DNA of 64,000 nt from Thermodesulfobacteriota bacterium (GTDB lineage: Bacteria; Desulfobacterota_D; UBA1144; Nemesobacterales; Nemesobacteraceae): positions 595,639-659,638 of the forward strand of contig OZ242012.1 of NCBI GenBank assembly GCA_965204795.1, given 5' to 3'. A model generated the notes under the pieces. It saw only the letters and a program-made list of their open reading frames with translations, did no database searches and was not told the origin of the DNA. Both the position numbers and the translations under genes were made by a program. Position 1 is the stretch's first letter; the number at the start of each line of letters is the position of its first letter. Positions 1 to 20,226 of the stretch are shown piece after piece.

Positions 1-3000
1 TTCCTTGTCTCCGTTGAACTCGTTGCGGTAGAGGGTTCCCAGTGCTTCGGCTGTACTTCGGGGAGCTGAGTTCATGCGCATCAAAACGGCGTCTTCGGAC
101 CGGACGCCATGGTATACCATTGCCGGAAGAACATTGATCTTGAAACGCTCCTGCTCCGACATCTGGTCGAAATTTATCCCTGAAACCTGTCTTAACGCGG
201 ACAGGCCCCAAGTGCCGTTGTTGACGATCGCGCGATAGATCGCCATGCAGGTTTTTGTCAGAGCATCGGTGTCAAGCTGGTTTTCGCTTTGGGTGAAATA
301 TTCTTTCGCAATATCTCCCAGACGTTTTCCCTCCACCCAGTCAAGAGTAATCTCGGATATGCGCTTGTTACCGAATCCACTCCCGGCGATTTTTTCTAGG
401 GGTTGTCCAATTTGTTTTATGTTGAGCATTACGCCGAACAAGTCCGCGATCTTGCCGCCGTCGCCGAACAGTTTGTCCGGCATCCAGTCCGAGGACGAGA
501 GTCCCTTTTCAAGGTTGCCGAGATCTTTCATGGCCTGCCTGACGCTTTCCGGGGAAAATCCCGTTGAATCGGCAAGCTCTGCTACTCCGTGCGGCATTTT
601 CGCCAGTTCATGTACATATATTTTCGTTGCTTTCAGCAGGGCTTCCGCCTTTTCGATACGGGAGTCCCTGCGAAGACACCTATAGCCGTAAGTCTGGCGA
701 AGGATGTTTTCCGAGTCGGACAGAACAGCCTCAAGGTTTTTCTTTTCCGCCCAGAGATGGGCTATGTAGCAACGGAAGTCCTCCCATTGATCTTGCCAGA
801 AGACCTCAGACAGGTTGTCTAGAGAACCTTGCTCCGCGAGATTGTCGATCAGGGTTACGAGGCGCGAAACCAGCTCCCCGGTGTTGCGTTTCACAAACTC
901 TACGATTTCCTCCCGGCTGTTTCCTTGAGCTATTCCTACAACGCCGACGGTATCGTGGTCAATGCGCCCGGCTCTTCCCGCGAGGTTCCAGAACTCGCGC
1001 GGTTCCATGGGAACCGGACGACTGCGATTCTTGGGTATTAGATGAGATGCGAGAAAGACCGAAGAAACCGGAAAATTTATTCCTTGGGAAATCGTTGAAG
1101 TGGCGCAGAGAACCCTAATATCTCCCGACTCGGCGAGCCACTCGATCAGGGAACGTACTTCGTCGGAAAGTCCGGCGTGGTGAACTCCGACGCCATGACT
1201 CAGCATGGAAACCAGTTCAAAATCGGGACTGATTTCTGTTTTCAGGAAATCCTGAACGAGGCGCACGTTATCAGGGACCGTTTCATACTGGGGAAGAGCT
1301 TGCACCACGTCTCTGGCCATCTTCCAGGCCAGGTCGCGACGGTTGGTCACGGCGACGCTGGTTGCGTTGCTGGACTTGCGACCGGAAAGCACTGCCGCCA
1401 TTGCCGCCGTCTGCGTAGTAAAACCCTTCTGGTCTCCTTTTGCATCAATGACCTTACTGCGAGCGACAGACGGGATGGGACGAACATCTCCAACGAAATG
1501 GTTTCCGCATAGTGGCATGGCTTTTTCTGTGGCAGTGAGGGTTTCATATTCAAGACGCCAGCCTGCGCGCTCGTCGTCGTCCTTAACGGCTCTGTAAATT
1601 CCAATGATCCGCTCGTTGGGTTTCCAGGTCGTGGTGCCCAGGCTGATCGCCCTGCCTGCGTTGATGTCTTGGGCCAGCCAGCGGGCTATCGGTTCTATGT
1701 CGTCTACATAGGGCATCAGAAGCAGGAAGTTAGCCTGCGAGCAGTCTTGTTTAACAGTCGCCAATAGAAGTTCAATCCGAAGCCCGCGACCTTCCGCTTC
1801 AAGATTGTGCGCTTCGTCCATGACGACCAGTGCTAGCGTTCGCTCGACTTTTTTATTTCGTATTACCAGAGAGAGTTTTTCGGGCGTGGCGACAAGCACG
1901 TCGAAGGATTTCCCGTCGGTTAGGATTTGCTCTTCAAACGCATCCACTTCAACCGCGGCCGTAAGTTGTTCTACCTTGATGTTGATCGGTTCGAAATCGC
2001 GGCGCAGACGACGGGTGATCTGAGATGAGAGTGCGCGGGTGGGGGCGACGTAAGCCACCCATCCTCTGTCCGCGAACTGGTTCAGGGCCTGGAGGATGCG
2101 GAATTGCGCCAGAAGGGTTTTCCCTCCGGAAGTGGGAAGTTCTACCACGATGGCCGTCTTGGCCTGATCCAAGAGTCCCTGCTCGAGAAGGGCGGCGCGC
2201 TGTGGTGGCAGAAGTTCAAACAAAGACCGGTGGCTTTCCCGCTTTGTTAGGGATCTTACGAAGTCTGTCGTTCTTGAGTTGACTGTGCGGGTCGCCCACC
2301 AAAGCGAGTTGGTCACCATTATTCTGCTGGAGGCGTGCAACCAGCGAAGAACAATCTCGTGTTGGATATCTCCCGACTCCGCGGCTGCCCTGATGCCAGC
2401 CTCAAAGTGTTTTTCGACTTGGCTGAATATATCTGCCGGTTCTCCCTGCAACATGTAGTGTGCCAGTGTTTCCGATGCCTTGGCCCAGTGATACATCGCC
2501 ACAAGGCGCAAAGCTGTTGAGTGGGCACCGTTCTCGGAGCCATTTACTAGGCAAGACTTTTCGTAAGTTTTCTGATCGTTGCGCAGACCTGCGACAATCT
2601 CTCTGATGCGGTCGAGGTCGTCCCAGCCCTCTTTTCTGAACAGTCTTGTCCAGCAGTCGAACAGGCGATACAGAAGACGAAAGTCCCATGGTGCTTTCGC
2701 CGCACTAGGTACCTTCAGCGCTTCATGATTTTCGTTGTACCATCGGCGCAGGTCGGACCAGCGGTCGCCGCAATACGCGAGAGCCGAAAGCCGAAACACG
2801 AAGAACATGCGTTCGTGCGTTTCTTCAGGTACCTGAAGAGTACGATATATGTTAAAGGCTTTGTACGATGCGGCGACTGCCTGCTTGCGAAGTTGGTCGT
2901 CGCCGCCGGATGCGGTGCTGATTTCCTCAAGACCTTCGACCGCGGCCATCTCGTGGGCCAAAGCGACTCTTTCAAGCAGGGTATCGTCGCCTTCTGCCGG

Positions 3001-3150
3001 ACCGAAAGAAAACTCAATCTGATTTCCAACTGCTTTCTGCGCTAGACGTTGATTTACGAGGTCGTCGGCACGGCCCAAGTCTTCCTTCTTAATTGAGGAC
3101 ACGGCCCAGTGGGCGTTGAGAAGATTGAAGTCTTCTTGGGAAAGGCTCAT
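1..3150 (-). CDS. Large SF2 DExH-box helicase (HamB-like candidate). C-terminal part lies beyond the left window edge, with over 1045 aa in the window.
   Basis: Reverse-strand translation from ATG (plus-strand cat at 3148-3150) is open to position 1. Motifs seen: ELPTSGGKT (Walker A), VVMDEAHNLE (DEAH), ATSTISQGINFP, AGRAGR (motif VI). The ORF track lists no minus ORF here because no stop occurs inside the window. Start overlaps the upstream gene's stop (ATGA). Confidence 0.8.
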   Translation of the reverse strand, partial: MSLSQEDFNLLNAHWAVSSIKKEDLGRADDLVNQRLAQKAVGNQIEFSFGPAEGDDTLLERVALAHEMAAVEGLEEISTASGGDDQLRKQAVAASYKAFNIYRTLQVPEETHERMFFVFRLSALAYCGDRWSDLRRWYNENHEALKVPSAAKAPWDFRLLYRLFDCWTRLFRKEGWDDLDRIREIVAGLRNDQKTYEKSCLVNGSENGAHSTALRLVAMYHWAKASETLAHYMLQGEPADIFSQVEKHFEAGIRAAAESGDIQHEIVLRWLHASSRIMVTNSLWWATRTVNSRTTDFVRSLTKRESHRSLFELLPPQRAALLEQGLLDQAKTAIVVELPTSGGKTLLAQFRILQALNQFADRGWVAYVAPTRALSSQITRRLRRDFEPINIKVEQLTAAVEVDAFEEQILTDGKSFDVLVATPEKLSLVIRNKKVERTLALVVMDEAHNLEAEGRGLRIELLLATVKQDCSQANFLLLMPYVDDIEPIARWLAQDINAGRAISLGTTTWKPNERIIGIYRAVKDDDERAGWRLEYETLTATEKAMPLCGNHFVGDVRPIPSVARSKVIDAKGDQKGFTTQTAAMAAVLSGRKSSNATSVAVTNRRDLAWKMARDVVQALPQYETVPDNVRLVQDFLKTEISPDFELVSMLSHGVGVHHAGLSDEVRSLIEWLAESGDIRVLCATSTISQGINFPVSSVFLASHLIPKNRSRPVPMEPREFWNLAGRAGRIDHDTVGVVGIAQGNSREEIVEFVKRNTGELVSRLVTLIDNLAEQGSLDNLSEVFWQDQWEDFRCYIAHLWAEKKNLEAVLSDSENILRQTYGYRCLRRDSRIEKAEALLKATKIYVHELAKMPHGVAELADSTGFSPESVRQAMKDLGNLEKGLSSSDWMPDKLFGDGGKIADLFGVMLNIKQIGQPLEKIAGSGFGNKRISEITLDWVEGKRLGDIAKEYFTQSENQLDTDALTKTCMAIYRAIVNNGTWGLSALRQVSGINFDQMSEQERFKINVLPAMVYHGVRSEDAVLMRMNSAPRSTAEALGTLYRNEFNGDKE

Positions 3151-4034
3151 CGCTTACTCTCCGACCGTTGGGAAACCGTTTTGTTGCCAAGGTTAGCGAT
3201 CTCGCCACACGGTATATAGACCGCAAGAAATTCTATGCGGGTTTCCTCTGGACAGTCGTCCACCAGTTCGTCCACTCCCTTTTGTATATCCCTGACGTCG
3301 GGCTTAACATCGCGGACCAGAACACCGTAAATTTGTACATCGGAGTTGTTTTTTAGAAACCGTTTGCCTGCGGATTGGAATCTCGGTTTCCACTCGGCGT
3401 GCTTGGCCCGGACTCCCAGATACTTGAAAAGGTCTTTGCGTATGGAATCCCCGTCGCGCAGGTTTGTCAGTTGTCGATTCAAGCCGCCCGCGTCGTCGTA
3501 CATAACTTTTGGCGGATATCTTTTCTCGTTTGATGTCTTTACCTCGCCGAAAGCTAGACAATCGCCGTTGTCGTCAATTCCAAGACCCACGAGGTCCGTG
3601 CCCGGAAGGCTTGATCCGCTTTTTCTTTTGTCGCGGTCCGAAGGCCAAGGAAACGTGCAGGAGCGATAGTGTGTCAGATAAGTGTCGGCGATAGCTTCCC
3701 CGACTCTCCAGCCATCAACTTCGTTAGGGTCGCGGAGGGCATCTTCAATTCCAGCGGTTTCGAATTCGGTTTCACCGAGTGTTTCCCTGATGCCAGACTT
3801 GCCCTCTTCGTCAAACAGGATGGAGGCAACCGGTCCTTTGATGGCTTCATCAAGTTCTTCACGCGTCCAGACAACTCCTGTTCCGTGACAGGGTGGCCGC
3901 CCGTGAGTATAAACTTCTTTTCCGGCAGGCAAGCTCACGTCGGCGACTCCGTCCGGTTTCCCGCGTGCGCAGGATGGTTTTTGCCAGAGACAAATCCGGG
4001 TCTGGGTGAGTGCATGTTGTCCGTTGCGGCGCAA
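3147..4034 (-). CDS. HamA-like small protein (DUF1837-like by recollection), a putative PD-(D/E)xK nuclease-fold effector partner of the helicase.
   Basis: 295-aa ORF whose TGA overlaps the helicase ATG (ATGA coupling). Contains D...FGEVK (D-x(n)-ExK-like) and an AT-rich promoter region upstream at 4035-4448. The family call is from architecture (small ORF plus DExH helicase), not from alignment. Confidence 0.45.
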   Translation of the reverse strand: MRRNGQHALTQTRICLWQKPSCARGKPDGVADVSLPAGKEVYTHGRPPCHGTGVVWTREELDEAIKGPVASILFDEEGKSGIRETLGETEFETAGIEDALRDPNEVDGWRVGEAIADTYLTHYRSCTFPWPSDRDKRKSGSSLPGTDLVGLGIDDNGDCLAFGEVKTSNEKRYPPKVMYDDAGGLNRQLTNLRDGDSIRKDLFKYLGVRAKHAEWKPRFQSAGKRFLKNNSDVQIYGVLVRDVKPDVRDIQKGVDELVDDCPEETRIEFLAVYIPCGEIANLGNKTVSQRSESKR

Positions 4035-4448
4035 CGACTGACTTCGTGGACATCGGAGACGACAACTTTCGTCGTTATAAGCTCCGTATTCACGGAAAGT
4101 CGTGCAATGGACTCTGAAGCAATCCTAATTTTGTGGCAGTTCATCGTGTTCCGATTGCAAGCCTTCAGGCAAAGAAGCTGTTTCCCGCCCGGTTTTTATC
4201 GAAGGTATGTCAATATCCCGCTGGCTGTAGTGTTTGTGAAGGACGAAAGATTTTTCAGGTACAAAAGGTTGGATTCCTTTCATCAAGTTCTTGAAACTCT
4301 TTTTCGCTCTGGACAGTTTTTTAGATGCTTTCTTGATTGATCGAGGTTTTCTTTCTGCTTCCCTCTTTGCGAATCTATAAAATGATAATACCAATGTGCT
4401 TGGAATTCAAACGAGTATCTTCAAAGTCCCTTCCCCCATCGGATCAAC

Positions 4449-5987
4449 TCATTTCTCGTCTTCCTTTATTCTGGAAAAAAGATTTTCTCCCTTTTTTACT
4501 CCTGTACCGGCCTTGGTGTATCCCCAATCGGTACTCGCGGGACCCGCCTCCGAAGAAAGACCGAGCTTGGTACGGATTTCCCGGGAAGTCTCCGGAAGGA
4601 AGGGATAGATGAGAAGGGAGATTCCCCTTACGCTCTCGGCGAGCGTCCAGAGCACCGTCCCGAGCCGTTCGCGCTGTTTTTCCTCTTTTGCGAGTTTCCA
4701 CGGAGCGGCGTTGTCCACGTACCTGTTTACGAGCCCTATGAATTCCCATATAGCCGAAAGCGCCCTGCTGAACGCCAGTTCTTCGAGATGCCCGGCGACC
4801 CGCTCCGCCGTTTCGCCGTAAGCCTTCTCTATTTCCCTTTCGCCCTCCGACGGCTCTCCGGGTCTCGGAACGGCTCCCCCGAAGTATCTCTCTATCATTC
4901 CCAGGGAGCGGCTCACCAGGTTTCCGAGATCGTTCGCGAGATCTCCGTTTACCCTTCCCACGAGCGATTTCCTCGAGTAGTCCCCGTCCTGTCCGAAAGG
5001 TATTTCCCGAAACAGGAAGTAGCGGAATATCTCGGAACCGAATTCCTCCACCACCCTGTACGGGTCCACCACGTTTCCGAGCGACTTGGACATCTTCTCC
5101 CCCTCGACCGTCCACCATCCGTGGGCGAACACCGTTTTCGGAAGCGGGAGTCCCGCCGACATCAGAAAAGCTGGCCAGTAGACGGCGTGGAACCTCAGTA
5201 TGTCCTTTCCCACGAGGTGCATGTCCGCGGGCCAGAACTTCCCGAAGTTCCCGTCTTTTTCCGGAAAACCCAGGGACGTGAGGTAGTTTGTGAGGGCGTC
5301 GAACCACACGTAGATCACGTGATCTTCCGATCCCGGAACCGGGATCCCCCACGAGAAATCGGTCCGGCTCACGCTGAGGTCCCGAAGACCTCCCTCGACG
5401 AAGCTCACCACCTCGTTTCTCCTGTAGTCCGGCTTTACGAACTCGGGATGCTCCGCGTAGTGGCGGAGAAGCGGTTCCTGGTATCTTGAGAGGCGAAAGA
5501 AGTAGCTTTCCTCCTTTATCTTTTCGAGCTTCGGGCGGCTTTGCTCGGGAAGCTTCATCAGTTCTTCGACCTGGGTCTCGGTTACGAACGACTCGTTTCT
5601 GACGTCGTACCAGCCCTCGTATTCGTCGAGGTATATGTCCCCGCTTTTTTCCACCAGCCTCCATATTTCGCGGACCGCTTCCCTGTGGCGGGGCTCCGTG
5701 GTCCTTATGAAGTCGGTGTTCGATATTCCCAGGAGTTTCCAGAGGTCTTCAAACTTTCGAACGACCCTGTCGGCAAGCTCTGCGGGAGCCTCTCCGCTGG
5801 CTTCGGCGGTCTGCTCTATCTTTCTTCCGTGCTCGTCCGTCCCCGTCAGAAAATAGACTTCGTGTCCCGAGGCGGACCTGTGTCTCGCGATCGCGTCGGC
5901 CGCTATGGTGGTGTAGGCGTGGCCTATGTGCGGCACGTCGTTCACGTAGTATATGGGGGTCGTGACGTAGAAGCGTTTTTCATCCAT
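4449..5987 (-). CDS. metG: Methionyl-tRNA synthetase (short form, no C-terminal tRNA-binding extension)
   Basis: HIGH motif (PHIGHAYT), KMSKS, class I core; 512 aa. Confidence 0.95.
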   Translation of the reverse strand: MDEKRFYVTTPIYYVNDVPHIGHAYTTIAADAIARHRSASGHEVYFLTGTDEHGRKIEQTAEASGEAPAELADRVVRKFEDLWKLLGISNTDFIRTTEPRHREAVREIWRLVEKSGDIYLDEYEGWYDVRNESFVTETQVEELMKLPEQSRPKLEKIKEESYFFRLSRYQEPLLRHYAEHPEFVKPDYRRNEVVSFVEGGLRDLSVSRTDFSWGIPVPGSEDHVIYVWFDALTNYLTSLGFPEKDGNFGKFWPADMHLVGKDILRFHAVYWPAFLMSAGLPLPKTVFAHGWWTVEGEKMSKSLGNVVDPYRVVEEFGSEIFRYFLFREIPFGQDGDYSRKSLVGRVNGDLANDLGNLVSRSLGMIERYFGGAVPRPGEPSEGEREIEKAYGETAERVAGHLEELAFSRALSAIWEFIGLVNRYVDNAAPWKLAKEEKQRERLGTVLWTLAESVRGISLLIYPFLPETSREIRTKLGLSSEAGPASTDWGYTKAGTGVKKGENLFSRIKEDEK

Positions 5988-6145: not shown

Positions 6146-6457
6146 ATGGATACTAAAATATCTTTTAATATGCTGTCGTCGCAGGAAATCCTGAAGGAGA
6201 TCTCTTCCCGCCTCAGAAGCCGCCGCCTCGCCCGCAACCTGACCCAGAAGGGGCTTGCGCGAAGAAGCGGGGTGGCGCTGGGCACTCTCAAGAAGTTTGA
6301 AAGCACCGGGCGCATCTCCCTGGCTTCCTTTGTCCGTCTGGCGGTCGCCCTGAAGGACGAAGCCGCCCTGGAAGGGCTTTTGCTCGAAGAAGAGTTCAGA
6401 ACTCTCGAAGACGTTATGAGGGCGGAAAGAAAACCCAGAAGGGGACGCATCACGTGA
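6146..6457 (+). CDS. hipB: HTH XRE-family regulator, HipB-like antitoxin
   Basis: 103 aa with helix-turn-helix (RNLTQKGLARRSGVALGTLKKFE). Its stop overlaps the downstream hipA start. Confidence 0.75.
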   Translation: MDTKISFNMLSSQEILKEISSRLRSRRLARNLTQKGLARRSGVALGTLKKFESTGRISLASFVRLAVALKDEAALEGLLLEEEFRTLEDVMRAERKPRRGRIT

Positions 6458-7698
6458 AAATCGCTCCGGGAACCCCGCTTGATGTATTCCTGCGCTGGGA
6501 CGCGGACGACGTTCAGCAGGTCGGCAGGCTCGCCTACAGGGACCGGGTCGCCTACCTTGAGTACGACGAGGATTTCATCAGGTCCGGACTTGAGATTTCG
6601 CCCGTCCGCCACGAACCCGAAGCGGGACTTTCGCGGCCGTACGTGGCGGACGTTTTCGAGGGTCTCCACGGAGCGTTCAACGACAGTCTTCCGGACGGCT
6701 GGGGGCGGCTGCTCGCGGACCGGCGGGCCCGCCAGCTCGGAACAGAACCGGAAACGCTCACGCCGCTTGACCGCCTCGCGTGCGTCGGAAGCGACGGAAT
6801 AGGGGCGTTGTGCTATTCGCCTTCCGTCGAGGCGTGGGAGGAGGGTGAAAACCTGGTTGACCTGGACCGGCTGGCCGCCGGTTCGAGACTGGTTCTCGAA
6901 GGGGAAGTCGGCGAAGTGCTCTCGGTTCTCGGGCGTGCCGGAGGTTCTCCCGCGGGGGCGCGCCCCAAGGCCCTTGTGGCTCTCGGAGACGACGGCCGCG
7001 CGGTCCACGGAACGGACGAAGCGCCCTTGTCGTACGAGCACTACCTGGTCAAGTTTCGGGGACGGGGAGACCCGTGGGACACGGCCGCGGTGGAAAAGGC
7101 GTACTCCGCGATGGCCGAATGTTCGGGAGTCGAGGTTCCCGAGACGAGACTGCTTGAGGGTCGCGACGGAAATCTTTTCTTCGCGAGTCGCCGGTTCGAC
7201 AGGGAAGGGAGCCGTCGCCTTCACGTTCATTCCGCGAGCGGGCTGCTGTATTCGGACATTCGATTTCCCGCGCTCGATTACGGGGACCTTGTTCTGCTTA
7301 CCCGAATCGTGACGGGCGACCATCGTGAATGCAGGAAAATGTTCGCGCTGGCCGTCTTCAACGTCCTGTCGCACAACCGCGACGACCACGCCCGGCAGTT
7401 CAGTTTCATTATGACGCGCGACGGCGCATGGAGACTCGCTCCGGCCTACGACCTTACGTGTTCGCCGGGTCCCGGCGGGCAGCACTCGACTTCCGTTCTC
7501 GGGCGTGGCGGGGACGTTACGCGACAGTGCCTCGTCGAGCTTGGACTGAAGGCGGATATGGAACGTGCGGAAGTCTCCCGGGTCATCAAGCGGGTTGAAT
7601 ACGGCGTTTCAAAATGGCCGGCGTTTGCCCGGGAGTGCGGGGTCGGCGGCGACTCGACGCGCGAAACAGCCCGCTTTCTCGACGAAGCGAGACTTTGA
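6454..7698 (+). CDS. hipA: HipA-family serine/threonine kinase toxin
   Basis: 414 aa. N-terminal HipA coupling domain with LPDGWGRLL. C-terminal kinase-like motif NVLSHNRDDHARQFSF. Four-nt overlap with hipB. Confidence 0.85.
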   Translation: MKIAPGTPLDVFLRWDADDVQQVGRLAYRDRVAYLEYDEDFIRSGLEISPVRHEPEAGLSRPYVADVFEGLHGAFNDSLPDGWGRLLADRRARQLGTEPETLTPLDRLACVGSDGIGALCYSPSVEAWEEGENLVDLDRLAAGSRLVLEGEVGEVLSVLGRAGGSPAGARPKALVALGDDGRAVHGTDEAPLSYEHYLVKFRGRGDPWDTAAVEKAYSAMAECSGVEVPETRLLEGRDGNLFFASRRFDREGSRRLHVHSASGLLYSDIRFPALDYGDLVLLTRIVTGDHRECRKMFALAVFNVLSHNRDDHARQFSFIMTRDGAWRLAPAYDLTCSPGPGGQHSTSVLGRGGDVTRQCLVELGLKADMERAEVSRVIKRVEYGVSKWPAFARECGVGGDSTRETARFLDEARL

Positions 7699-16477: not shown

Positions 16478-16621
16478 GGTTTTGCCCGTTACTTCTCCGA
16501 TTCGCGAGTTCGAGCTTGCGGGCCGCTCCCGCGTCTTCATTTGCCTTGGTTGAACTTCCGCCTCGAGAAAGTCGGGGAAAACTTTACAAATTTGCATTTA
16601 TGTTCTATAATTGCAAACAAC

Positions 16622-17752
16622 ATGATAAAACGGACGGTTGAAAGCAGGCTTCTCCGCCTGGCGGGACAGTATCCCGTCGTTACGGTCACGGGGCCCAGGC
16701 AGTCGGGCAAGACGGTTTTATCCAGAAAATGCTTTCCGGAACATCTCTATCTCAATCTGGAGAAACCGGATACGCGCGAATACGCCAGGAAAGATCCCGT
16801 GGGCTTTCTCGCCCAGTCGGAGAAAATGGTTATAGACGAGGTTCAGCGCGTGCCCGACCTTGTTTCCTACGTTCAGGCCGCGGTCGATGAAAGCGGCGAA
16901 GCGGGACGGTTTATTCTGACCGGCAGTCATCAGTTCGGGCTGACCGAAGTGGTCTCCCAGTCGCTGGCGGGACGCACGGTGCTGATAACCCTGCTTCCGT
17001 TTTCACTGAGGGAGCTGGGAGATACATCTCCGTATGAAAACCTGATTTACAGGGGATTCTACCCTAGGATAATAGACAGGAAGCTGAACCCCACCGAGGC
17101 GCTTTCGTTCTACGTCGATACGTATGTCCGGAGAGATTTGAGAGAGATAAAGGAAATCAGGAACCTGAGCCGGTTCGAAGATTTTCTTCGGCTTTGCGCC
17201 GCCAGCGTGGGACAGATGCTCAACATGTCCCGCATGGCGAACGATGTCGGCGTCGCCGTAAATACCGTAAAGGCGTGGATTTCCGTTCTGGAAGCGAGCT
17301 ATGTTGTATATCTGCTCCGGCCGCATTACAGGAATTTCAGAAAAAGAATCGTGAAAACTCCCAAGCTTTACTTCTGCGACGTGGGACTTGCTTCTTATCT
17401 TCTGGACATAAAGAAGGTCGAGCACGTGAAGTCGCACCCGCTTCGGGGAATGCTTTTTGAAAATCTTGTCGTCGTGGAAAAAATCAAGCGGAAGTTCAAC
17501 AACGTCGAACGGCCTTCCCTGTATTTTTTCAGGGACAACACGGGCAACGAGGTCGATCTTCTGGAAGAAGAGGGAAGTCATGTTGTTTCCTACGAGATAA
17601 AAATGGCGAAGACCCTGGACTCGAACCAGTTCAGGGGGCTTAACTTCTACAGGAAGCTCAATCCCGAAAACAGCAGATCGGTTCTTGTTTACACGGGTTC
17701 CGAGAAGACAACCCGGTACGGGCACGAATGCCTGCCTTTCCGGCATGTCTGA
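16622..17752 (+). CDS. AAA+ ATPase of the COG1373 family (AAA_14 plus DUF4143-like C-terminus)
   Basis: Walker A TGPRQSGKT, Walker B MVIDEVQ, C-terminal YFFRDNTGNEVDLL motif. TATAAT-like element upstream. It sits on the left flank of a low-GC islet. Confidence 0.75.
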   Translation: MIKRTVESRLLRLAGQYPVVTVTGPRQSGKTVLSRKCFPEHLYLNLEKPDTREYARKDPVGFLAQSEKMVIDEVQRVPDLVSYVQAAVDESGEAGRFILTGSHQFGLTEVVSQSLAGRTVLITLLPFSLRELGDTSPYENLIYRGFYPRIIDRKLNPTEALSFYVDTYVRRDLREIKEIRNLSRFEDFLRLCAASVGQMLNMSRMANDVGVAVNTVKAWISVLEASYVVYLLRPHYRNFRKRIVKTPKLYFCDVGLASYLLDIKKVEHVKSHPLRGMLFENLVVVEKIKRKFNNVERPSLYFFRDNTGNEVDLLEEEGSHVVSYEIKMAKTLDSNQFRGLNFYRKLNPENSRSVLVYTGSEKTTRYGHECLPFRHV

Positions 17753-18473: not shown

Positions 18474-19625
18474 GTGAAAAAACACTTTTTCAGATCTCTT
18501 GAGATAGAGAATTTTCGCGGTATCAGAACCTCCAGAATCGACAACTTTGCGAGGGTCAATCTTTTTGTGGGCGAGAACAGCTGCGGAAAGACAACCATTC
18601 TGGAATCGCTGTTCCTTCTGGCGGCCATCCGGGACCCTAGCAGGATGGTTAACATTCAGAATTCCAGAGGAATATATCTTACGGAGCCCAGAGACTTGGC
18701 AGATTTCTTTTTCGAACAGAAGCATGAAAACAATCTGCGTTTAACCGGAACTCATGAATCCGGGAAGAGAGAACTGACAATCAACGCTTTATACAGAGAC
18801 TCGCGTGCTTCTCGAACAGACAGTCAGCAGGAAAATGGAAGCGGAAACAACCATATTCTCAAAGTAAACAACATGGATTCCAAAACGGATGACTGCCTGC
18901 TTGGATTGGGATACACATTCTCGGTTTCCTGCAACGGGGACGGGGGCCCCGACCAGCATAATTCCAAAGTTGTTGCGACTTGGAGCGGTTCTCCTGTCGA
19001 GAGGGCGAGATTCGAAACATATATTGACGAGAAATATAAAGAGAAATCTTTGAACAGCGTTGCCGTGATTAGAGGGTCAAAGGATTCATACGAACACCTT
19101 CCCGTTGACGGCATTGGTAAAATGCTTCAGGAAAAACGTAAAGATATTCTACTGGAAAGTCTTCAGAAGATTGATCCCAGAATCCAGGACATACAGGTCA
19201 GCACTGCAGGAGTTGTTCTCGCGGATATTGGAGTTAAAAGCTTCATTCCTTTGAATCTCCTGGGAGACGGATTGCTTCATATGGTCAATCTTGTTTCTCA
19301 TGTTGACGATACCAGGGGTGGAATTCTGATGATTGATGAATTCGGTTCGGGTTTTCATGTCTCCTGCGTTGAATACATCTGGAAAGTTCTCATAGAGCAG
19401 TCGGGAAAATACGACACACAGGTATTCATGACTACTCACAGCAAGGATGTGGTGGAAGGTCTGGCGGGCTTGCATGAACGGGAACCCGATCTTTTTTCCG
19501 AAGATGGGGACGACGTCGCGTGTTTTTATCTGGGGAAAAACAGCGAGGGTCGAGTGAAAGGATACAGATATTCTCCTGAGGATATAAAGCAAGTTCTGAA
19601 ATCAGACACAGATATTCGCCACTAA
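18474..19625 (+). CDS. OLD/PARIS-AriA-like ABC-type ATPase (AAA_15/AAA_21 family)
   Basis: GTG start. N-terminal LEIENFRGI, Walker A GENSCGKTT, Walker B ILMIDEFGSGFH, H-loop TTHS. 383 aa, low GC. Confidence 0.85.
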   Translation: MKKHFFRSLEIENFRGIRTSRIDNFARVNLFVGENSCGKTTILESLFLLAAIRDPSRMVNIQNSRGIYLTEPRDLADFFFEQKHENNLRLTGTHESGKRELTINALYRDSRASRTDSQQENGSGNNHILKVNNMDSKTDDCLLGLGYTFSVSCNGDGGPDQHNSKVVATWSGSPVERARFETYIDEKYKEKSLNSVAVIRGSKDSYEHLPVDGIGKMLQEKRKDILLESLQKIDPRIQDIQVSTAGVVLADIGVKSFIPLNLLGDGLLHMVNLVSHVDDTRGGILMIDEFGSGFHVSCVEYIWKVLIEQSGKYDTQVFMTTHSKDVVEGLAGLHEREPDLFSEDGDDVACFYLGKNSEGRVKGYRYSPEDIKQVLKSDTDIRH

Positions 19626-19626
19626 A

Positions 19627-20226
19627 ATGTCTCAGAAAGTGTGTATTTTTGTTGAAGGGAAGGAGGATTCTAATTTCCTGGAATCCTACGTTGGTTATCT
19701 GGGCTATGAACTGCCGGAAATAAGACCCATAGGCGGGAAAGACAATCTTAAAGGGAATCGTCTGGAGATTGCCAAAAAATTAGATGAAGAAGACGCAAGG
19801 GTGCTGATTGTATTTGACGCCGATGATGATTATGGGAAGACGAAAGATGAGGCAAAGAGAACTATCCAAGACAAGGTGCAGGTAAACGACGGAAATTCCC
19901 GTCTGGATTTTTTTCTTTTCCCCAACAATCAGGACTCGGGAAACCTGGAAGACCTGCTCGAAAAAATCATAAAGTCCGAACACAAGGGTATCTTTGATTG
20001 TTTTGAAGCCTACAAGGAATGTCTGACGGAGCGGGACCCTTCTTACCTCCATCCGGACAAGAAGGCTAAAATTTATACATACAAGCAATCTCTGGGAGCA
20101 GTGAGAGAAGGGAGAGAATATCATTTCAGTCCGAAATACTGGGAATTCGAGAACAGTTCTCTCGACCCGCTGAAAAGTTTTCTTTGCGAGAATTTTCGCA
20201 AGAGCGGTCTGGAAAAAGTACGATAG
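19627..20226 (+). CDS. Small Toprim-like protein (DUF4276/DUF4435-like by recollection), putative nuclease partner of the ATPase
   Basis: 199 aa. ATG is 1 nt after the ATPase TAA. Toprim-like acidic motifs CIFVEGKEDSNFL (conserved E) and LIVFDADDD (DxD). Confidence 0.6.
   Translation: MSQKVCIFVEGKEDSNFLESYVGYLGYELPEIRPIGGKDNLKGNRLEIAKKLDEEDARVLIVFDADDDYGKTKDEAKRTIQDKVQVNDGNSRLDFFLFPNNQDSGNLEDLLEKIIKSEHKGIFDCFEAYKECLTERDPSYLHPDKKAKIYTYKQSLGAVREGREYHFSPKYWEFENSSLDPLKSFLCENFRKSGLEKVR

Follow-up and report, generated by a model that had tools for sequence, protein, structure and literature searches.

The question raised by this locus was whether two overlapping genes on the minus strand, the second of them cut by the edge of the available sequence, form an anti-phage system, and of which kind. 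They lie at the start of a 64,000-nucleotide stretch of DNA from a Thermodesulfobacteriota bacterium (GenBank assembly GCA_965204795.1, contig OZ242012.1, positions 595,639 to 659,638; hereafter the window), where an original prediction made from the sequence alone had placed a Hachiman-like defence pair, a small nuclease-like protein followed by a large helicase. The pair (genes A and B) is probably an anti-phage operon of two genes, intact and acquired horizontally, that belongs to PDC-M23, a family that would represent a deeply divergent branch of Hachiman (HamAB). The pair is real but no new kind of system, and it was filed as Hachiman-like and not as a Hachiman member, because its fold is related to that of Hachiman but the DUF1837 sequence-model definition of HamA failed.

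Both proteins matched the PDC-M23 profiles of PADLOC almost from end to end and in the same gene order. Protein A hit PDLC04529 (PDC-M23A) with an E-value of 5.3e-91, residues 35-289 of a 295-codon open reading frame (ORF) aligning to positions 3-260 of the 265 of the profile, and protein B hit PDLC04531 (PDC-M23B) with an E-value of 0 (1328 bits, profile positions 4-1014 of 1060). PDC-M23 (CAS_00096, FAM_02460>>FAM_00699) is a phage-defence candidate of PADLOC (Payne et al., bioRxiv 10.1101/2024.01.29.577857). It belongs to a set of 145 candidates obtained by 'guilt by embedding' from genes located inside BREX, DISARM or type I restriction-modification (R-M) systems, and the candidate table gives it a count of 161 (10.1101/2024.01.29.577857). 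A full-text literature search for 'PDC-M23' returned no paper text, the name being found in one supplementary table alone, and the searched text gave the family neither fold nor mechanism. Clustering of the A family gave 452 clusters at 90% identity and 570 at 50%, and members were present in 339 species-level genomes. The best 150 matches of an exhaustive profile search with this family were all clear family members, any weak tail toward canonical HamA lying outside those 150. Nothing set the window pair apart from PDC-M23, with which it also shared the type I R-M association; in its own lineage, represented by the relatives L001 and L002 (84-86% identical), A and B stood beside hsdM and were not nested between hsdS and hsdR.

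Gene A (PDC-M23A; 3147..3938, minus strand) runs from a GTG at 3936-3938 to a TGA at 3147-3149 and encodes a predicted HamA-like PD-(D/E)xK nuclease of 263 amino acids (aa). The original prediction had given the small protein 295 aa (3147-4034, minus strand). That ORF exists, but 295 is the length of the longest ORF, read from a TTG, and the protein starting at the GTG (3938) is shorter. Homologues of A measured 263-265 aa, the PDC-M23A profile alignment began at codon 35 of the longer ORF, a GGAG stood 8 nt upstream of the GTG, and one protein of the public collection (P0245) was identical to A over 263 aa with the same start. Gene B (PDC-M23B; 1..3150, minus strand) starts with an ATG at 3148-3150 that overlaps the TGA of A, as had been noticed from the outset. 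The resulting ATGA (3147..3150, minus strand), read directly in the sequence, suggests that A and B are translationally coupled.

From its ATG, the frame of B stayed open for 1050 codons down to base 1, where the window edge cuts the gene. The expectation of a helicase of more than 1045 aa running off the window was borne out by an entry (P0121) that was 100% identical to B over these 1050 residues and had a total length of 1097 aa, which places 47 residues (141 nt) beyond the window. Both ORFs are real genes, as indicated by the PADLOC matches (E-values of 5e-91 and 0) and by an open frame of 1050 codons in DNA of about 53% guanine plus cytosine (GC), far above chance. The GC fraction of the pair (about 0.53) was lower than in the flanking genes (0.58-0.67). 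The flank to the left of B was deduced from L001 and L002 alone.

Protein A is predicted, from its model and its conserved residues, to be a PD-(D/E)xK nuclease of the HamA fold. The AlphaFold2 (AF2) model was confident, with a predicted local distance difference test score (pLDDT) of 86.5 and a predicted template modelling score (pTM) of 0.86. Searched with Foldseek against the PDB at E <= 1e-3, it retrieved two chains alone, both of them HamA from E. coli ECOR31 (8vx9_A and 8vxy_A). The match to 8vx9_A had an E-value of 8.9e-7 and a probability of 1.0, with a template modelling (TM) score of 0.56-0.57 over 265 columns at 15% identity. No unrelated housekeeping family, one of the two outcomes that the original prediction had named as speaking against it, appeared among these fold matches.

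Conservation was read from two alignments of the A family, A1 (with the window sequence as reference row) and A4 (48 divergent members). Residues E81, D115, K134 and Q156 were invariant even in members 25-35% identical to the window protein, and among the 48 divergent members E132 was conserved in at least 90% and K134 in all. E81 (3696..3698, minus strand), in the helix motif WRVGEAIA, aligned with GDLGEIFA of HamA, and D115 (3594..3596, minus strand), the D of PD-(D/E)xK within SLPGxDLVG, aligned with SMRGEDVIG; both were invariant in A1 and A4. The E-x-K of the predicted active site, E132-V133-K134 (3537..3545, minus strand), lies within FGEVKTS and aligned with E138/K140 of HamA, the two positions that are changed in the nuclease-dead structure 8VXY (PMC12278908). 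Judged by its residues, this pattern is the classical PD-(D/E)xK signature, in agreement with what had been proposed for the small protein.

Profile comparisons returned the same register. A diverse A-family profile run against PDB sequences had HamA as its sole match at E <= 10 (E ~0.64, non-significant), with GE on GE, GaDlVG on GEDVIG and GEVK on TEAK, the alignment stopping at K140 of HamA. Aligned with hhalign against PF08878 (HamA in Pfam), the A family took an identical register (pairwise P of 6e-4); the PF08878 alignment was built from a 90-aa HamA-fragment seed and consisted of short fragments, so that it covers the N-terminal 60% of the domain. PF08878 was also the commonest sub-threshold match in relatives of A (7/31 and 7/48, i.e., 14 of 79 scans; best E-value 3.6e-4), and A had no match in NCBIfam. 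The profile matches of A to HamA in the PDB serve to set the motif register and are no proof on their own.

Protein B displayed the features of a HamB-like helicase of the Ski2 type within superfamily 2 (SF2). It matched more than 20 PADLOC HamB1/HamB2 profiles, the best being HamB1 PDLC00194 (E-value 6.9e-57, residues 225-960). Against PDB sequences its matches were Ski2-like, with HamB as the best bacterial one (8vx9_B, 1.4e-25) and weaker matches to Lhr (8.9e-6) and AbpB (4.7e-4). Pfam recognized DEAD (residues 331-470), ResIII and Helicase_C (651-730). Foldseek with the B model ranked HamB at the top (8vxa_A, 1.1e-16; 8vx9_B, 2.6e-16), ahead of Hel308, and HamB alone aligned over the full length (about 1200 columns vs about 800-880 for Hel308), a comparison of limited weight given the poor model.

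Three regions were distinguished in B. Residues 1-303 (2242..3150, minus strand) form an all-alpha-helical N-terminal domain in the AF2 model (pLDDT mostly 70-90) without any Pfam match, presumed by analogy to be the counterpart of the helical (NAH/TPR) domain with which HamB binds HamA (Tuck et al. 2024, PMC12278908). The RecA1/RecA2 core follows (residues 307-745; 916..2232, minus strand), supported by the Pfam DEAD and Helicase_C domains and the Ski2-like PDB matches. It carries the Walker A GGKT at residues 342-345 (2116-2127, minus strand), DEAH at residues 445-448 (1807-1818, minus strand) and the GRAGR of motif VI (964-978, minus strand). Residues 746-1050 (1..915, minus strand) make up a helical C-terminal region, in which the HamB1 profile alignment reaches residue 960 and the AF2 helices were of low confidence. 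Motifs I, Ia, II (DEAH), V and VI were invariant in alignment A2 of the B family (reference row P0121). Among the SF2 motifs listed in the original prediction, GGKT and DEAH were found as described, but no SAT-like motif was present, its place being taken by LLLMP, and motif VI read NLAGRAGR and not QxxGRAGR. The remark that the helicase was long for a HamB was wrong, since the HamB chain of ECOR31 has 1174 residues and PADLOC HamB1 profiles extend up to 1163 positions.

Compared with Hachiman HamAB of ECOR31 (8VX9/8VXA/8VXY), the pair has the same operon layout of two genes, in which the nuclease gene precedes the helicase gene. A and HamA agree in size (about 260 aa), in fold and in the positions of the E...D...E-x-K series. 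The helicase is in both cases a Ski2/Hel308-like protein of about 1100 aa with a RecA core beginning at about residue 300, preceded in HamB, and by prediction in B, by a helical N-terminal extension. The two differ in motif II, which is DEAH in B and DEGH in ECOR31 HamB, and in the type I R-M genes present at about 39% of the PDC-M23 loci. The Hachiman assignment of the original prediction was upheld by the HamB profiles and by the HamA fold but not by the DUF1837/HamA sequence models, and the pair is catalogued in PADLOC as PDC-M23. AbpAB, the Hachiman type I-B system of E. coli K-12 (8ZUE, PMC11914072), likewise combines a nuclease partner with a Ski2-like helicase, in a heterodimer that responds to DNA damage. 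AbpA has a Cap4 nuclease domain in addition, and its DUF1837 is catalytically dead (PMC11914072), whereas A is a single domain whose active site appears intact.

Several observations weigh against a defence operon of Hachiman descent. The sequence links between A and HamA were each weak (profile E-value of 0.64, hhalign probability of 28.5%) and identity amounted to 12-15%; window A had no match in Pfam, HamA/DUF1837 included, even at E <= 10, and none to the PADLOC HamA profiles at E <= 0.1. On the side of B, the HamB profile alignments begin at about residues 204-225 and leave residues 1 to about 200 outside. The motif III position of the B family is an invariant LLLMP where SAT is expected, and the OB-like C-terminal barrel of HamB was not visible after residue 746 of the model, which displayed helices there (pLDDT of about 50-70). 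The AF2 model of B was itself poor (pLDDT 60.5, pTM 0.36, TM-score to HamB 0.2), as its input alignment was shallow (at least 66% identity), which makes the domain-by-domain correspondence of B with HamB tentative. Furthermore, PDC-M23 has the status of a candidate in its catalogue (10.1101/2024.01.29.577857), and the plasmid and phage collections searched were without any A homologue. Across the same genomes, B was markedly better conserved than A (about 67% against about 53% identity to the window proteins). Divergence beyond the Hachiman profiles concerned all of A together with roughly residues 1-200 of B, which fits co-evolution of an A-B interface.

The mode of action proposed for the pair follows that of its characterized relatives. 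In E. coli, the HamA nuclease is kept inactive by HamB for as long as HamB scans intact DNA, a free single-stranded DNA (ssDNA) end entering HamB leads to ATP hydrolysis and to activation or release of HamA, and active HamA clears phage and host DNA, resulting in abortive infection (PMC12278908; PMC11914072). By analogy, translation of A and B would be coupled and the two proteins would assemble 1:1, the N-terminal helical domain of B keeping A inactive while B surveys DNA. A free 3' ssDNA end or a nick, left by phage replication or DNA damage, would then enter the helicase, and ATP-driven ratcheting would activate or release A. The liberated nuclease might degrade DNA indiscriminately, and the infection would be aborted.

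Almost all of 80 genomes, drawn from many phyla, kept the gene order A-then-B. In about 70 of the 80 loci B started at the A stop through the 4-nt ATGA overlap (GTGA in a few), and B measured about 1090 aa. Type I R-M genes, with identities confirmed by Pfam, were the sole recurrent neighbours; 31 of the 80 loci (about 39%) had them on the same strand within 3 kb. At least 14 loci had an hsdS stop overlapping the A start, and R-M genes stood on both sides of the pair in 8, in the order hsdM-hsdS-A-B-hsdR. In L001 and L002, hsdM lies about 200 nt downstream of B and is followed by an MNT/HEPN pair and hsdS. The longer flank fetched for L001 added a KAP NTPase after hsdS, and the surroundings of L001 are a defence island.

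How far this neighbourhood reflects dependence was weighed in two forms. The pair could be an accessory module of type I R-M, not autonomous, working as a PrrC-like fail-safe upon inhibition of the R-M enzyme, or reinforcing restriction through degradation of DNA from ends made by HsdR. The frequent R-M proximity, the hsdS/A overlaps, the flanks on both sides and the hsdM next to B in L001 and L002 all favour such a module, as does the fact that PDC families were found through such embedding (10.1101/2024.01.29.577857). Against this, 49 of the 80 loci had no recognizable type I R-M gene in the fetched flanks, so that the pair is evidently able to persist alone, and embedding is common among unrelated autonomous defence systems (Payne et al., 10.1101/2024.01.29.577857); a purely accessory role was therefore considered quite improbable. 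It would be unlikely, though worth entertaining, that PDC-M23 is a Hachiman lineage functionally wired to type I R-M into a two-layer restriction and abortive-infection device. The activating signal might in that case be DNA ends or stalled translocation from HsdR, or an R-M complex blocked by anti-restriction proteins.

The place of the pair in the window, with metG (4449-5987) directly upstream and hipBA, holB and menaquinone-type radical SAM and other metabolic genes beyond it, and the homology of B to Hel308 and Ski2-type repair helicases would suit a housekeeping repair or recombination helicase-nuclease of Hel308/Lhr type. The metG adjacency was found in 2 of 81 loci, the two closest relatives, whereas the recurrent neighbours were defence genes. 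Patchy distribution over many phyla combined with high B identity (about 67% to the window protein) points to horizontal transfer, and the GC content is below that of the flanks. Hel308/Hjm and Lhr share the SF2 Ski2-like RecA core with B but are without the N-terminal helical domain and without a coupled nuclease gene, and they scored far below the HamB and PDC-M23B profiles. In NCBIfam, B remained far under the cut-offs of the Lhr-type models (45.6 bits vs 849 for PRK13767; 18.1 vs 1496 for PRK09751) and under that of Hel308 (97.6 vs 1200). An Lhr-type repair helicase with conserved non-defence synteny, the other outcome named in advance as adverse, was not borne out, and a housekeeping identity, very improbable in our judgement, was dropped on account of low scores and variable synteny. 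Decay of a former defence cassette into an inactive remnant was also considered, as some relatives are disrupted: four (L019, L031, L048, L079) have an early stop in A or B, and in L056 (8001-10581) about 1.9 kb, possibly an insertion, separate a truncated A from the B start. Neither frame is interrupted in the window, none of the family-invariant residues is missing, and an identical full-length B (1097 aa) exists, which makes such decay scarcely credible here.

Read as an intact PDC-M23 operon related to Hachiman, the pair provides PDC-M23, so far a catalogue number, with a fold, an active site and a mechanism that can be tested. The link between PDC-M23 and Hachiman would widen the Hachiman sequence space beyond the reach of DUF1837/HamA models, and Hachiman prevalence estimates based on these models would miss the PDC-M23 branch (about 570 clusters at 50% identity, in 339 species-level genomes). 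This link appears undocumented in the searched literature, though it is an unsurprising extension. With its frequent coupled nesting between hsdS and hsdR, the family is well suited to testing whether restriction cooperates with a DNA-damage sensor. For the window itself the outcome is ordinary, namely a small defence cassette, probably acquired horizontally, beside metG.

An AT-rich intergenic region of 510 nt separates metG from A (3939..4448, minus strand), with a Shine-Dalgarno-like GGAG at 3947-3950. Its GC fraction was 0.43, measured over 4001-4500, against about 0.53 in the pair. A promoter scan upstream of A found two sigma-70-like sites where 0.5 +/- 0.7 were expected. One of them, TTGAAT-17-TATCAT (4410-4382, minus strand), kept both hexamers in L001 and L002, where the leader was 87% conserved, in line with the AT-rich promoter region announced before the pair. 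The distance of about 440 nt from this promoter-like site to the A start implies an AT-rich leader of considerable length. A small ORF inside the 510-nt leader was ruled out, codon-position bias being absent and the stop positions differing, and Rfam and tRNA scans of the region returned no matches.

The eight nested loci were L013, L019, L026, L038, L040, L051, L064 and L075. The hsdS stop overlaps the A start in most of them, and in several hsdR starts at or just before the B stop, so that the five genes resemble a single operon. The MNT/HEPN pair of L001 (15930-17967), also present in L002, L035, L060 and L066, lies between hsdM and hsdS and consists of a small HEPN-like gene (NTase_sub_bind) and an MNT domain (NTP_transf_2). 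Gene calling in L001 joined this MNT domain to Methylase_S in a single product of 541 aa, either a possible MNT-HsdS fusion or an artefact of the calling. Other defence-type genes adjoining PDC-M23 were a PRTase-CE gene with a winged helix-turn-helix (L013, 15192-16445), RhuM with Schlafen AlbA_2 (L045, 12097-13889) and a regulator with a helix-turn-helix and Peptidase_M78 (IrrE-like; L007, 12067-13215).

A large share of the PDC-M23 carriers were metagenome-assembled genomes (MAGs) from lineages characteristic of symbioses, those with marine sponges among them, namely Poribacteria, Binatia, Caldilineaceae, Poriferisocius, Tethybacter, Aphanocapsa feldmannii and Latescibacterota. A Thermodesulfobacteriota MAG (OZ251569.1, 86% identity) was the nearest relative of the window.

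Elsewhere in the window, a hipB/hipA-type toxin-antitoxin pair (6146-6457 and 6454-7698, plus strand; HipA_C, Couple_hipA) occupies the interval between metG and holB and is also found in L001. An AbiL-like pair lies at 18474-19625 and 19627-20226 (plus strand), the first gene matching AbiLi (PDLC02336, E-value 6e-53; Pfam AAA_15/AAA_21) and the second AbiLii (E-value 7.8e-11). An ATPase with AAA_14 and DUF4143 (16541-17752, plus strand) matched the PADLOC single-gene candidate PDC-S01 with an E-value of 6e-99, and a similar gene was present within the defence island of L001.

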